Shown here piece after piece: positions 1 to 4,985 of a DNA stretch of 7,174 nucleotides. Each line of letters begins with the position of its first letter. Position 1 is the first letter of the stretch. The translations under genes were made by a program, and so were the position numbers. The DNA comes from a virus (taxonomy: Duplodnaviria; Heunggongvirae; Uroviricota; Caudoviricetes), in IMG/VR virus record IMGVR_UViG_3300028453_000023; one strand, written 5' to 3'. Under the pieces are notes generated by a model that saw nothing but the letters and a program-made list of their open reading frames with translations, was not told the origin of the DNA and made no database searches.

Positions 1-1607
1 TAGTCACGACCGTCACGCGGAACAGGGATATGGCTTACCGCCTCCTTCACCATCTGCTCAAGCATCGGACGCACATCATCGCCCGTCACGCACTTCTGTA
101 ATACCACAGACAGGGAAGCCAGTTTTTCTTCAAACGTTTGTGCCTGCGCGGCTATTTTCCCCTCAAATGTGCGCTGTAAATCCGCCAGCACTGCGGAAAA
201 TTCTTCACCCAGCGCACGGATAATGGACAGTTCCCGTTCCGTCATTTTCGCAGTATCCCCCCTGAACATCGCTTTCACCGCATCATGCTCTGTTTCACTG
301 ATTGCCTTATTACCGTCAGATGCGCCGTCAGGCGGTTGCGCTAAGGCCGTTTTCCCGGTCGACGCGAACGGATCTTCACGGGCATCACGACGGGACAGCG
401 CCTCCAGACTGTAGTTCTGCTGCTGAAGATACAGTGCATCACCGCCGGCCAGGGGCGGCAGGTTCTCCCGTTTACGGGCCTCATTGGGCGTGAGAAGCGT
501 ATTTTTCACCGCATCCCCCAGCGTTTTCATGCGCCGCTCACTGTCCATTCTCAGCAGCGTGGTGACATCAAATTCCGTACTCTCGTTTTCCCCCGTTTCC
601 AGCGCCTCATCCAGTAACAGTTCAATGGACTCAATCAGCGTCTGCAGGCACTGAGAATAATACTGCTGCTCCAGCGCCTCCACGTTGTCACTGGAAGGCG
701 GTTGTCCCACGCCAATCTTGTAGGCCGGGACACGGAACACCGAACAGACAATTTCAGCGGTCATCTTCAGTTGTTCCACCGTCTGCGAATCCACCGGTGA
801 AAACGTCGTGGGGTTGTATTTTGCCCCGTTGCTCAGAATGGCCGTTTTCCCCGCATTTTCGCCTGTATACCCGCTGTCCCAGTTGCTCTTCAGTTTTTTC
901 GCATTTTCTTCCGTAATACTGCCGGGGATCTCAATCACCCCGGACGGCCTGCCGCCATTTCTGAAAAAAGACGTCGAATTTTCCTGAATATGATGCCCCT
1001 GCGTGGCCGCCAGCCCGGCGGCATACACCGGCGGCAACCCTATAAGCGGATGAAAAAAACAGTTAAACCGATCGTGGATCACTTCCCGGGCAGGCACCGT
1101 CACCGCCTCAGTGATCCCACAGTTCCGGTCCGGCGTGATGCGGTAGAACACCTCGCCGTCATCCGCCACCAGAGGTTCAACCCGGTTCCAGTCCAGAATA
1201 CGCAGTTCTTTGATCTGCCCCCGGGCATTACGGATTTTCAGCACCACCGTATTGCCGTGACGCAGTTTGGCGTTCAGCCACAGTTCAAAAAACTGAATGC
1301 GGTTCTGCTGCGCATTGGGGCGACGACAGAGGCGGGCAATATCCCCCCGGCGCGTTTCCCTGCGTATCCCATGCGCATCCGTCTGCATAAGACGCAGCCG
1401 CATTTTGGCGATATCCTGGGATATCAGCGAAATACATGCAAACACCGCATGAAAGGAGAGGACGGCTTCAGGATCGGCTTTCACGCCCTGCTGCCAGGCG
1501 CCGGAAAAGGGCTCAGCCACCGCCTGAAACAGGCTGGTCCAGCCCGCCTCTCTTACGTCACGTCCTGATTTCTGGTTTTTTCGGGTTCGCCGTAAAAGGT
1601 TCCACAT
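1..1607 (-). CDS. Phage portal protein, HK97-like family; start at 1607, runs off the left window edge (at least 535 codons visible, no stop)
   Basis: Hand translation of the minus strand in the frame with ATG at 1605-1607, preceded by GGAG 8 nt upstream; the in-frame stop upstream (1623-1625) fixes the start. The translation contains portal-type blocks (FFRNGGRPSGVIEIPGSITEENAKKLKSNWDSGYTGENAGKTAILSNGAKYNP and EQLKMTAEIVCSVFRVPAYKIG). Position in a head-gene cluster supports the call. Confidence 0.85.
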   Translation of the reverse strand, partial: MWNLLRRTRKNQKSGRDVREAGWTSLFQAVAEPFSGAWQQGVKADPEAVLSFHAVFACISLISQDIAKMRLRLMQTDAHGIRRETRRGDIARLCRRPNAQQNRIQFFELWLNAKLRHGNTVVLKIRNARGQIKELRILDWNRVEPLVADDGEVFYRITPDRNCGITEAVTVPAREVIHDRFNCFFHPLIGLPPVYAAGLAATQGHHIQENSTSFFRNGGRPSGVIEIPGSITEENAKKLKSNWDSGYTGENAGKTAILSNGAKYNPTTFSPVDSQTVEQLKMTAEIVCSVFRVPAYKIGVGQPPSSDNVEALEQQYYSQCLQTLIESIELLLDEALETGENESTEFDVTTLLRMDSERRMKTLGDAVKNTLLTPNEARKRENLPPLAGGDALYLQQQNYSLEALSRRDAREDPFASTGKTALAQPPDGASDGNKAISETEHDAVKAMFRGDTAKMTERELSIIRALGEEFSAVLADLQRTFEGKIAAQAQTFEEKLASLSVVLQKCVTGDDVRPMLEQMVKEAVSHIPVPRDGRD

Positions 1608-1774
1608 TCGCCATGCTCCGCATCACGTTTCTTTTTCTGACCTGCCGGACGTCGCACCGTGATGTACTCCGCCTTTCCCAGGCGAACCAGCACCTCCGCA
1701 CACGGCTGTGCCACATCACGGATATCCCCGGCCCGGGCATCATGCGTGCCCTGCAGATATCGGATCTTTGCCAT
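1553..1774 (-). CDS. Hypothetical small head-module protein (73 aa)
   Basis: ORF fills most of the 211-nt interval between the capsid stop and the portal start, and overlaps the portal start by 55 nt. Its ATG (1772-1774) sits 8 nt downstream of a hairpin that is itself directly preceded by a perfect AAGGAGG. No recognisable family. Confidence 0.4.
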   Translation of the reverse strand: MAKIRYLQGTHDARAGDIRDVAQPCAEVLVRLGKAEYITVRRPAGQKKKRDAEHGECGTFYGEPEKTRNQDVT

Positions 1775-1811
1775 AACTTGTTACGGGAGGCACACGCCTC
1801 CCGTCCTCCTT
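1772..1811 (-). promoter_or_regulatory. Structured translation-initiation region: AAGGAGG (1805-1811), 9-bp GC-rich hairpin (1783-1804, loop GUGU), 8-nt spacer, AUG (1772-1774)
   Basis: Read directly from the sequence. Arms 1783-1791 and 1796-1804 are perfectly complementary. The SD is 30 nt from the AUG in linear sequence but about 8 nt if the hairpin folds. Confidence 0.45.
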
Positions 1812-1818
1812 ATCAGAC

Positions 1819-3756: not shown

Positions 3757-3767
3757 ATCAGCCTCCT

Positions 3768-3793
3768 GAAAATAAAAAAACCGCCGCAGCGGT
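3768..3793 (-). terminator. Short hairpin (5-bp stem ACCGC/GCGGU, loop UGCG) followed by UUUUUUUAUUUU, between the large terminase stop and the capsid SD; weak terminator/attenuator or U-rich translational enhancer
   Basis: Read directly: minus-strand RNA is GGACCGCUGCGGCGGUUUUUUUAUUUUCAGGAGGCUGAUGUG. The stem is short, so termination efficiency is uncertain. Confidence 0.3.
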
Positions 3794-3819
3794 CCATGAT
3801 GGTTACAGGGTGAACAGGG

Positions 3820-4985
3820 TTATATGAAAAAAACCGCATATTCTTTCTTTTTCGGCTCCGGATTCAGGGACATCAGGGATACCGCATTGAAGAGCGCCAT
3901 CAGCGGGTCAATTTTCCCCCGCCCGCTGGCCTGTTTGGTAATAAGGATGGCGTTACCTTTCGGCTCCACCCGGGCATTGCCAACGCACCAGGCCATCAGT
4001 GGCTGACCACCATGCACCAGTACTCCCTCAGCCAGTTTGCGCTCGGTGGTTTTTATGGCCCCGCCCAGCTTCCAGCCCTGGCTTATCCCCACAACAATTC
4101 CGTCGGGGATCCCGGCTTCCACCAGTGAATCCAGAATCTGCCCCACACCTGACGGGTCAATACCGATATGATCCAGTAACTCAGCCTCATGAATACGACG
4201 CACATACTCCGCCACTTCCGCCGTGTCATCCCCGACCCGACGGACAATCGTCATGTCTCCACAGGCCACAAAATCCTGAAAACGGGATGCCTCACTCTTC
4301 CGTCTGACCACCGCGGTTTCATGCGCCCAGGCATGGCCCCAGCCCAGCCATTCGCGGGTTTCCCTGTCACGGCCAATCACGTACATTCCCAGCAGATCAT
4401 CCAGGCCCCCGCCGTCAATCCCCACCGTCACCACATCAGNNNNNNNNNNNNNNNNNNNNNNNNNNNNNNNNNNNNNNNNNNNNNNNNNNNNNNNNNNNNN
4501 NNNNNNNNNNNNNNNNNNNNNNNNNNNNNNNNNNNNNNNACCTGGCAGAGGTCATCCAGATCATCGTCACGTCTGACCATATCCCGCGCAGGATTAAAGG
4601 CGTTAGCCGCCACCTCCACGGTCGGGGCCAGAATGGTGTAGCCCGCCGCCTGCCGCCAGTTCAGTAACAGCGCCGTCATCATGATCCCGGCAGCCAGCGT
4701 GGACTTGCTGTTTTTCTTGGGGATAAGGATAAAAACTTCCTTGATATGGCGTACACCGGTCTGCGCATCGTAGGAGCCAAACAGGGCCGCCACCAGGTCA
4801 AACACCCACTGTGCGCAGGACTCCCCGAACGTCGGGCTGCCCGGTGCATCCACAATCCGCAGTTGTTTAAAAATCGCCAGTGCATGTGCAGCCTGATCCG
4901 GATAAATCGGGGCCGGAATAATCGACAGCCCCTTTTTCAGGCGCTCTGCCCAGTCCGGGCAGGCCGTGCTCCACACAGGTATCAT
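3820..4985 (-). CDS. terL: Terminase large subunit (Terminase_1-like), interrupted by the assembly gap at 4440-4539; the true gene is probably longer than the visible sequence
   Basis: The N-terminal fragment (4985-4540) has a deviant P-loop context (KEVFILIPKKNSKSTLAAGIMM). The C-terminal fragment (4439-3820) has nuclease-domain-like blocks (VTVGIDGGGLDDLLGMYVIG, and HGGQPLMAWCVGNARVEPKGNAILITKQASGRGKIDPLMALFNAV). The ATG at 4983-4985 overlaps the terS stop (ATGA). The two ORF-track entries 4428..4985 and 3820..4434 are the same gene split by the N run. Confidence 0.85.
4440..4539. other. Assembly gap: run of exactly 100 N
   Basis: Seen directly. A run of exactly 100 is the conventional placeholder for a gap of unknown size. 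Confidence 0.99.

Follow-up and report, generated by a model that had tools for sequence, protein, structure and literature searches.

Results

Gene content and order of the window

The window, i.e., the whole 7,174-nt stretch of viral DNA analysed here, carries on its minus strand an HNH endonuclease gene, the small and large terminase genes (terS and terL), a fusion of an S78 protease with an HK97-fold capsid protein, a 73-amino-acid (aa) open reading frame (ORF) and a portal gene, in that order, each supported by profile matches. The features of the locus are listed below from right to left, with the strand given for each.

5834..6199, minus: HNH endonuclease, packaging accessory beside terS (PF01844, 29.6 bits, E 7.5e-7; phrog_589, E 1e-44)
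5620..5741, both orientations: five exact ATGTTAAC octamers, clustered in the HNH–terS intergenic region
4982..5545, minus: small terminase subunit, terS (PF03592, E 1.7e-8; phrog_641, E 8e-69)
3820..4985, minus: large terminase subunit, terL, with a 100-N gap (TerL_ATPase in the N-terminal part, TerL_nuclease in the C-terminal part; phrog_7622, E 2e-109; phrog_2699, E 6e-74)
3778..3795, minus: intrinsic-terminator-like hairpin and T-run between terL and the capsid gene (7 pairs, by folding)
1819..3756, minus: S78 prohead serine protease, delta/scaffold coiled coil and HK97-fold major capsid protein in one ORF (645 aa, GTG start)
3178..3180, minus: conserved internal in-frame ATG (Met193) of the same ORF, with an AAGGA Shine-Dalgarno (SD)-like motif 10 nt upstream
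1783..1804, minus: GC-rich stem-loop ACGGGAGGC-GTGT-GCCTCCCGT, just 3' of the capsid stop, between an AGGAGG motif and the small-ORF ATG
1553..1774, minus: small conserved ORF, 73 aa (phrog_829, E 4e-39)
246..1607, minus: HK97-type portal protein itself, the first 454 residues of the open frame (PF04860, residues 54-382, E 5e-81; TIGR01537, 351 bits)
257..262, minus: G6 tract, G5 in relatives (from the alignment and junction sequences)
1..245, minus: first ~81 residues of a repeat-rich protein, X, cut by the window edge (own ATG at 245..243; equivalent to BP-4795 ORF59)

A preliminary description had read the order terS, terL, protease/capsid, small ORF, portal within positions 1-4985. The order is real, and the Pfam, TIGR and phrog matches bear out the gene identities, including that of the portal, which stands up to homology search (TIGR01537 cut-off, 112 bits; phrog_2271, 1260 bits). 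The departure from the HK97 and lambda order is likewise genuine, the portal gene lying after the capsid gene and not before the protease gene. The boundaries need amending: terS extends to 5545, past the end proposed for the feature, and the ORF taken as the portal is a portal fused to the next gene.

At the right-hand side of the module, the HNH gene has counterparts annotated as HNH endonuclease in phages BP-4795, YYZ-2008 and 2851, and HNH genes adjoining cos and terminase genes are a known arrangement (PMC3592412). The ATGTTAAC octamer has five matches, all within 122 nt of the HNH–terS intergenic region, against 0.13 expected, and five were reached in none of 200 shuffles; the cluster suggests candidate TerS recognition or cos-proximal repeats. 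TerS is 99.5% identical to its BP-4795 counterpart, and the terL start overlaps terS by ATGA. Scanning the window for Rfam families and tRNAs gave no match. The spacer between terL and the capsid ORF measures 63 nt (3819..3757).

The 73-aa ORF is conserved only in residues 1-42, and its tail overlaps the portal start. By tblastn it is found at 43-57% identity in six other enterobacterial genera, and alphaproteobacterial loci hold positional analogues with sub-threshold DUF7210 matches. Searches gave no Pfam match at E <= 0.01 or <= 1 and no NCBIfam or PDB sequence match, the matches from a large protein search were all E. coli "hypothetical proteins", and an AlphaFold2 model (pLDDT 52) was too poor for fold comparison. 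A role as a lambda gpW-like head-tail joining protein was considered and is unsupported, with no gpW-family sequence match.

Near-identical modules in Stx-converting phages

Positions 1-4438 of the window match 92 phage records at a coverage of at least 80% and 90-99% identity, all of them Stx-converting or E. coli phages. BP-4795 aligns in one piece over 4438 nt at 98.8% nucleotide identity, and 2851, YYZ-2008 and WGPS6 each align as a single piece over the same length at 96.8-97.3%; the gene-by-gene order in all four is identical to that of the window. The seven ORFs of the window are all open and 97-100% identical to their BP-4795 counterparts. For the right part, which includes a TonB-like gene, identity to JLK-2012 and Stx1a phages is 96.6-97.2%, and the right end corresponds to the TonB-like and hypothetical genes found between Rz and HNH in JLK-2012 and S19-141. 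Of 5426 complete E. coli genomes, 1240 (23%) contain the segment, with a median of 2 copies and a range of 1-7 per genome.

In BP-4795, stx1 and the genes for holin, lysozyme and Rz are followed by HNH, terS, terL, capsid, small ORF and portal, and then by Ad1, Hc1, a gp10-like protein, tail terminator, major tail protein, tape measure, J-like fibre and Lom. The same context is present in YYZ-2008, 2851, WGPS6, JLK-2012 and the chromosome of E. coli S19-141 (99.7% identical), the last having no stx in the region shown. In relatives at 95-99.7% identity, with phage genomes of 50-58 kb, the module is preceded by a lysis cassette and followed by a complete lambda-like tail module. Every relative examined has its lysis genes before HNH and its connector and tail genes beginning directly after the portal region, and the earlier suggestion that tails might be absent finds no support. 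The phage phi330, 96.8% identical to the window, forms plaques; its head measures 55 nm and its flexible tail 145 nm, and electron microscopy identifies it as a siphophage (PMC12502783). Mass-spectrometry data for its virions are deposited (PRIDE PXD061229).

Tail, integrase, lysis and stx genes are all absent from the 7,174-nt window, so that its assignment to a prophage rests on near-identity to these relatives. On that basis, the window very probably represents the beginning of the late operon for virion morphogenesis in a long-tailed lambdoid E. coli prophage of the Marienburgvirus/Pankowvirus kind, which often carries stx. It is the ordinary head module of Stx-type phages, already known and found in public, annotated phage genomes going back about 20 years.

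Conservation of the capsid-before-portal order

All 11 genome loci compared, which come from gamma- and alphaproteobacteria, keep the capsid-before-portal order, the alphaproteobacterial ones (Methylobacterium, Haematobacter, Brucella and Chelatococcus) at 46-50% identity. None of the 80 close viral contigs departs from it within its length (60 carry it complete and gapless), and among 80 diverse viral contigs the portal lies downstream in 71 and upstream in none, the other 9 ending within 2.05 kb; the loci compared are related, and these counts do not represent independent events. The order is a trait of old standing, fixed in the whole clade and not peculiar to the window copy. The preliminary description had proposed a distinct lineage: the order does mark a lineage, but not a new one, being that of the standard Stx-phage module carried by nearly a quarter of the E. 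coli genomes. Searches of a limited literature collection found no explicit description of the capsid-before-portal order or of the protease–capsid fusion. A very common family of E. coli prophages has capsid before portal as its standard layout, and annotators already name its genes correctly. As a caution, a gene order other than that of HK97 or lambda is no sign of mis-assembly or of a satellite.

The protease–capsid ORF and its candidate internal start

The 645-aa fusion ORF matches phrog_617 (E 2e-261), and the 98%-identity cluster of the protein has 9916 members. Its protease part matches PF04586 (Peptidase_S78; residues 48-153; 34.1 bits, cut-off 21) and scores 46.6 bits with TIGR01543, under the cut-off of 59 for that family, and its capsid part matches PF05065 (Phage_capsid; residues 386-635; 52.5 bits) and TIGR01554 (residues 204-584; 77.3 bits, cut-off 27.5). 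The protease residues His55 and Ser110 are invariant in two alignments and, judging by their position, are presumably catalytic. An AGGAGG SD motif precedes the ORF, immediately 3' of the hairpin between terL and the capsid gene.

An SD-like motif stands 3-12 nt before the conserved internal Met in 64 of 78 diverse loci, compared with 7.8% of 1244 other internal ATGs, and it occupies different codon registers among loci. The conserved codon is GTG in two loci (L118 and L123), and a stop codon lies just upstream of it in six (L110, L122, L127 and L142-144). The SD-like motif before Met193 in the window, with its 10-nt spacing, is weaker than the AGGAGG of most relatives. We lean towards the reading that the ORF gives rise to two nested products, a full-length protease-delta-capsid protein and a delta-capsid protein starting at Met193. 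The full-length product would carry the protease into the procapsid, and once assembly is complete the protease would, as in HK97, remove both itself and the delta domain.

Hairpins around the capsid cistron

The hairpin between terL and the capsid gene, together with a T6 run, is also present in six other enterobacterial genera, where the stem sequence is different. On the other side of the cistron, 66% of 90 diverse loci have a stem of at least 9 bp within the 70 nt that follow the capsid stop, as do only 5% of control windows. The two hairpins flanking the capsid cistron might set mRNA stability or read-through and so yield an excess of capsid protein over portal and connectors, a tentative reading to which we give a little less than even credence.

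The portal end and protein X

From its ATG at 1607, the portal gene stays open up to the left edge of the window and beyond. A single additional G at 257..262 fuses its frame to the next gene, X, whose equivalent in BP-4795, ORF59, begins MNERELSII. Close viral contigs show G5 in 40 cases and G6 in 23, on shared flanking haplotypes, and the portal end of other genera is in the G5 state; the two states share identical flanking haplotypes, and each occurs in viable phages. The G6 allele is present in four deposited phage genomes, namely 2851, YYZ-2008 and WGPS6, whose fused ORFs continue without a stop for 859-861 aa, and the Sanger-sequenced phi330, so that a homopolymer sequencing error as its sole cause was rejected. 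In the annotation of phi330, the portal is split again and stops short of the G tract on its upstream side. A programmed -1 frameshift into X at the BP-4795 portal end (CTG AAA AAA TGA) was considered and rejected, the A6 run being absent from other haplotypes and other genera. In public records, X is mislabelled "portal" or "gp6-like connector" because fused alleles exist, and the NCBI pipeline labels the split portal/X form of S19-141 "frameshifted".

In Enterobacter, X is a separate gene of 344 aa, and in some close contigs it is shortened to 119-148 aa. An AlphaFold2 model of X from an 18-sequence alignment (mean pLDDT 53) was too poor for a fold search; it shows a long N-terminal helix, short helices split by PxPxDG linkers and an ill-defined C-terminal beta domain. 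A profile of X gave only low-complexity matches against PDB sequences, and the Pfam search gave a weak match to CBM_5_12 (E 6e-4), below the cut-off. It is conceivable, albeit a long shot, that the tract acts as a recurrently slipping switch between a 454-aa portal with a separate X and a portal of ~860 aa with a C-terminal X pointing into the capsid. If so, twelve copies of a variable-length, carbohydrate-binding-like cargo would be placed at the portal.

Discussion

Alternative explanations

The unusual order would be spurious if the scaffold had been mis-joined at its 100-N gap (4439..4538), which sits inside terL, and the true order were the canonical terL, portal, protease, capsid. We give this virtually no credence. 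The C-terminal half of terL, the capsid gene, the small ORF and the portal gene lie on one gapless stretch (1..4438), so that the scaffold join cannot create the order, in agreement with the preliminary description; complete gapless copies among the close viral contigs point the same way. The gap itself is collinear with every reference, and the terL halves map in the same orientation to positions 19480-19034 and 18436-17822 of the BP-4795 locus. The missing piece corresponds to ~597 bp (199 codons), BP-4795 having exactly 597 bp there, and the resulting 149 + 199 + 205 aa give 553 aa, the length of BP-4795 TerL. It is also highly improbable that the window derives from a tail-less, capsid-forming satellite, i.e., a cf-PICI-like island that builds heads itself but takes the tails of a helper phage. 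Such islands carry HNH, terS, terL, protease, capsid, portal, adaptor and connector genes with no tail module (10.1101/2025.02.11.637232), and no tail gene is visible within the window; however, they are 10-18 kb elements with integrase and replication modules and without lysis and tail genes (10.1101/2025.02.11.637232), whereas the near-identical relatives have both, in far larger genomes. The 92 phage matches, without exception Stx-converting or E. coli phages, and the match of the right end to the lysis-proximal TonB-like region of JLK-2012 and S19-141 speak against a satellite as well.

We consider it unlikely, with a lesser but real share of probability, that the window copy belongs to a decaying, non-inducible prophage remnant, in which a pseudogenising frameshift would account for the portal–X fusion. 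Among the lambdoid prophages of STEC, many are defective; E. coli genomes hold up to seven copies of the module, the G6 tract differs from the G5 state of other genera, and truncated X genes occur in some close contigs. Against this, the seven window ORFs are open and close to those of BP-4795, and the fused allele, with its long open frame, is common to 2851, YYZ-2008 and WGPS6; the window is too small for judging the rest of the prophage.

Proposed working of the module

As the head module of a long-tailed lambdoid prophage, the operon would follow the lysis cassette and be transcribed within the Q-antiterminated late transcript. HNH, TerS and TerL would cut and package DNA at a site adjoining terS. 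The S78 protease, the delta-domain scaffold and the HK97-fold capsid protein would all come from one ORF, and the gene after it would supply a dodecameric HK97-type portal. Connector and lambda-like tail genes are expected next, past the left edge of the window. The likely internal start, the hairpins and the G tract bear on how an HK97-type phage sets its protease:capsid:portal ratio; these are modest side observations, testable in Stx phages, which are of medical relevance and can be cultured.

Comparison with known systems

The closest counterparts of the module are those of the Stx phages BP-4795 and JLK-2012 (Marienburgvirus) and 2851, YYZ-2008, WGPS6 and phi330 (Pankowvirus), which have the same genes, order and spacing at 95-99% identity over the module; the long-tailed Stx phages share its 63-nt spacer between terL and the capsid gene and its small ORF. 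The window has the G6 fused allele as in the Pankowvirus phages, yet overall it is closest to BP-4795 and Stx1_121427, and it has a TonB-like gene that BP-4795 lacks and that JLK-2012 and S19-141 carry. With cf-PICIs such as EcCIEDL933, the module shares the HK97-type packaging set of HNH, terS, terL, protease, capsid, portal, adaptor and connector; cf-PICIs have integrase and replication modules and are devoid of lysis and tail genes, both of which the relatives of the window have, and, judged on these relatives, the module is not that of a cf-PICI.

Nested protease and scaffold genes are known from lambda (C/Nu3) and herpesviruses (UL26/UL26.5). The predicted products of the fusion ORF would resemble them in that a long, protease-bearing product enters the procapsid via a shared C-terminal domain and a shorter, more abundant one arises from an internal in-frame start; here, however, the shared part would be the capsid protein with its delta domain, not a separate scaffold.

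The HK97 head genes are ordered terS, terL, portal (gp3), protease (gp4) and capsid (gp5), with the HNH protein gp74 encoded by cos. The module has the same protein families, i.e., a portal of the HK97 type, an S78 prohead protease, an HK97-fold capsid protein with an N-terminal delta domain and an HNH gene beside terS, and the likeness continues downstream with a gp6-like adaptor and a gp10-like protein. In contrast to HK97, the portal and protease–capsid blocks are swapped, so that the order is not the canonical one, protease and capsid protein share one ORF and are not encoded by separate genes, and a small conserved ORF and the repeat-rich protein X flank the portal. The module would work like the HK97 head system, in a distinct arrangement.

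Gene content and order

The genes of interest are all encoded on the minus strand, and profile matches exceed curated cut-offs for each of them except the small ORF between the capsid and portal genes, indicating that these are real genes and not chance ORFs.

Features of the window (coordinates, strand, description)
6914..6573, minus: 113-aa lipoprotein-like gene with a TonB C-terminal domain (Pfam match)
6241..6441, plus: DUF3950/YlcI-YnfO family gene, on the opposite strand to all others
6199..5834, minus: HNH endonuclease gene (profile match)
5545..4982, minus: terS (profile match)
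4985..3820, minus: terL (profile match), sharing an ATGA overlap with terS and followed by a 63-nt spacer
3756..1819, minus: fusion ORF, 645 aa, S78 prohead protease (residues 48-153) and HK97-family major capsid protein (TIGR01554, residues 204-584; Pfam Phage_capsid, residues 386-635)
1774..1553, minus: small ORF, 73 aa, sole match phrog_829, a PHROG without assigned function
ATG at 1607, minus: portal gene, continuing past the left window edge

These matches bear out the gene identities and the order terS, terL, protease/capsid, small ORF, portal given in the preliminary description, and the putative portal is truly a portal, scoring 351 bits with TIGR01537 against a cut-off of 112.

The window belongs to a Stx-type prophage

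Positions 1-4438 are matched over at least 80% of their length, at 90-99% identity, by 92 phage records, all of them Stx-converting or related E. coli phages, with Stx1_121427 (98.9%) and BP-4795 (98.8%) as best matches; the right-hand part, TonB-like gene included, is 96.6-97.2% identical to JLK-2012 and Stx1a phages. In BP-4795, Q, stx1AB, holin, lysozyme and Rz come before the shared block; after it come the genes for a gp6-like adaptor, head closure, a gp10-like protein, the tail terminator and the major tail protein, as well as those for chaperones, tape measure, minor tail proteins, a J-like fibre and Lom. The same layout is found in YYZ-2008, 2851, WGPS6, JLK-2012 and the E. coli S19-141 chromosome, the last 99.7% identical to the window. 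Phage phi330, 96.8% identical, is a siphophage that forms plaques; its head measures 55 nm and its flexible tail 145 nm, and OmpC serves as its receptor (PMC12502783). Of 5426 complete E. coli genomes, 1240 carry the terL-to-portal segment (median two copies, maximum seven). Near-identity to Stx-type phages and the shared layout thus assign the window to a very common type of long-tailed lambdoid prophage, of which it is the head module. The suggested possible absence of tails is not borne out: relatives carry tail genes after the head block and, judging from them, these genes sit just past the left window edge.

Three other origins were weighed. A mis-join at the N gap (100 N at 4439..4538, inside terL) is excluded as the source of the gene order, in agreement with the earlier statement that the gap cannot explain it: the terL C-terminus, capsid, small ORF and portal all lie on unbroken 1..4438, so a scaffold join cannot have made the order. 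Moreover, the gap flanks map 597 bp apart in BP-4795 with strand and order unchanged, and terL residues of 149 + 199 + 205 give 553 aa, the length of BP-4795 terL. A capsid-forming satellite (cf-PICI) would span 10-18 kb and lack lysis and tail genes (10.1101/2025.02.11.637232), whereas the phages related to the window span 50-58 kb and have both sets of genes. This copy could be a defective prophage remnant, judged on 7 kb only, but every ORF present is open and 97-100% identical to its BP-4795 counterpart.

The gene order is a lineage trait

Scanning one genome per species with a fusion-protein alignment as query yielded 11 loci, six enterobacterial (five named genera) and five alphaproteobacterial (Methylobacterium, Haematobacter, two Brucella and Chelatococcus; 46-50% protein identity). 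In all 11, terL, the fusion ORF, a gap of a few hundred nucleotides and the portal follow one another on a single strand, and 80 close viral contigs keep the collinear arrangement over the length that each covers. A set of 80 diverse viral contigs, 48-82% identical to the Chelatococcus protein, has the portal downstream in 71 and upstream of the fusion gene in none; the other nine end at most 2048 nt past the capsid gene. By these comparisons, the swapped block order arose long ago and is invariant within the clade. The order is therefore a lineage trait, as the preliminary description had proposed, but public data already include many annotated members of this lineage. Overall, the observed order is confirmed and its interpretation holds in part: long-tailed Stx-type phages are already known to have this head module as their standard one.

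At one clade locus (L010) and nine diverse viral loci (e.g., L099, L102 and L114), no homologue of the window's terL was detectable in 7 kb of upstream sequence, the L010 match being marginal (18% identity, E 2.5e-4); there, the capsid-portal block seems to be combined with a different terminase type.

Right-hand genes and octamer repeats

HNH genes adjoining cos and terminase genes are a known arrangement (PMC3592412). Within the HNH-terS intergenic region (5620..5741) there are five perfect copies of the octamer ATGTTAAC, in both orientations, with none elsewhere in the window and 0.13 expected, making them candidate terS-binding or cos-proximal repeats. The DUF3950/YlcI-YnfO gene, located between HNH and the lysis region, is transcribed in opposition to the late operon and keeps this position in all Stx-type relatives examined. 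The TonB-like gene lies in a low-GC stretch (0.42 versus ~0.57) near a promoter-like site (6959..6932). JLK-2012 and S19-141 have the gene and BP-4795 lacks it, a distribution that suggests an inserted accessory gene; the PHROGs label of its family, "Rz-like spanin", is unsupported by the Pfam match.

A G tract fuses the portal to protein X

In BP-4795 and other genera, the portal has 448-454 aa and ends right after a G5 or AGAGG motif, and a separate gene starting MNERELS follows with an ATGA overlap. In the window, G6 at 257..262 merges the portal frame with this next gene (ATG 243..245), so that the portal ORF is a fusion. G6 also occurs in YYZ-2008, 2851, WGPS6 and phi330, the first three having "portals" of 859-861 aa. 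Close viral contigs carry G5 (40) or G6 (23), and deposited phages carry either; the presence of both on identical flanking haplotypes suggests that the tract slipped repeatedly. In phi330 (L013, ~3300-3400), a +2 insertion (CTGCCTCTGACGG versus CTGCCTGACGG) ~90 nt upstream of the tract re-splits the genes, giving a 445-aa portal whose tail is frameshifted; as phi330 forms plaques nonetheless, the last ~35 portal residues appear dispensable.

The gene after the portal encodes X, a repeat-rich protein (12860-14245 in BP-4795, L001, ORF59; 13487-14521 in locus L003; window 1..245, start only). X combines a long N-terminal helix (AlphaFold model poor), 54-aa tandem repeats of variable copy number (giving 299, 353, 407, 461 or 569 aa) and, at its C-terminus, a conserved beta domain that matches CBM_5_12 weakly. 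Analysis of X found no support for its public names, "portal protein" and "gp6-like head-tail connector".

Hairpins around the capsid cistron

A terminator-like stem with a T-run (3795..3778, minus) precedes the capsid cistron and is kept in six enterobacterial genera with differing stem sequences, and a GC-rich stem (1804..1783, minus) lies immediately past the capsid stop. Of 90 diverse loci, 66% have a stem of 9 bp or longer no more than 70 nt from the capsid stop, compared with 5% of control windows. These flanking hairpins may affect message stability or downstream transcription, stabilising the capsid message or attenuating what follows, a role that would fit a layout encoding the most abundant protein before the 12-copy portal.

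The post-capsid hairpin has AGGAGG directly 5' and the small-ORF ATG 8 nt 3' (window 1783..1810), a layout also seen in other enterobacterial loci; if formed, it would shorten the Shine-Dalgarno-to-ATG spacing from ~30 to ~8 nt, and small-ORF translation may be structure-dependent. Conservation of the small ORF is limited to its first ~42 residues, the remainder overlapping the portal start, and homologues in other enterobacterial loci have ~55 aa. Alphaproteobacterial loci carry a small gene at the equivalent position (sub-threshold DUF7210 matches; phrog_29995).

A probable nested start in the fusion ORF

A conserved in-frame Met193 (ATG 3180..3178) lies exactly at the expected HK97-type capsid start (MNIGEQIKSF...). 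A Shine-Dalgarno-like motif stands 3-12 nt before the conserved Met in 64 of 78 diverse loci (AGGAGG or GGAGG in 41), as against 7.8% (any motif) and 1.1% (strong motif) of the 1244 remaining in-frame internal ATGs in these ORFs; its codon register varies among loci, and the Met codon is GTG in two. The window's own motif, AAGGA at 10-nt spacing, is weaker than most. In six loci a stop codon just upstream separates protease and capsid genes, the latter beginning at this Met. Motif conservation and these split genes suggest two nested products, with internal initiation at Met193 giving delta-capsid beside full-length protease-delta-capsid. Only three points might repay experiments: the nested start, the hairpins and the G tract.

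Comparison with known systems

Homology marks HNH, terS and terL as a packaging set of the HK97 style, and the protease, delta domain and capsid fold of the fusion ORF as HK97-like. Relative to HK97, the portal and protease-capsid blocks are swapped in this clade. The proposed products of the fusion ORF would share the nested-product logic of lambda C/Nu3 and herpesvirus UL26/UL26.5.
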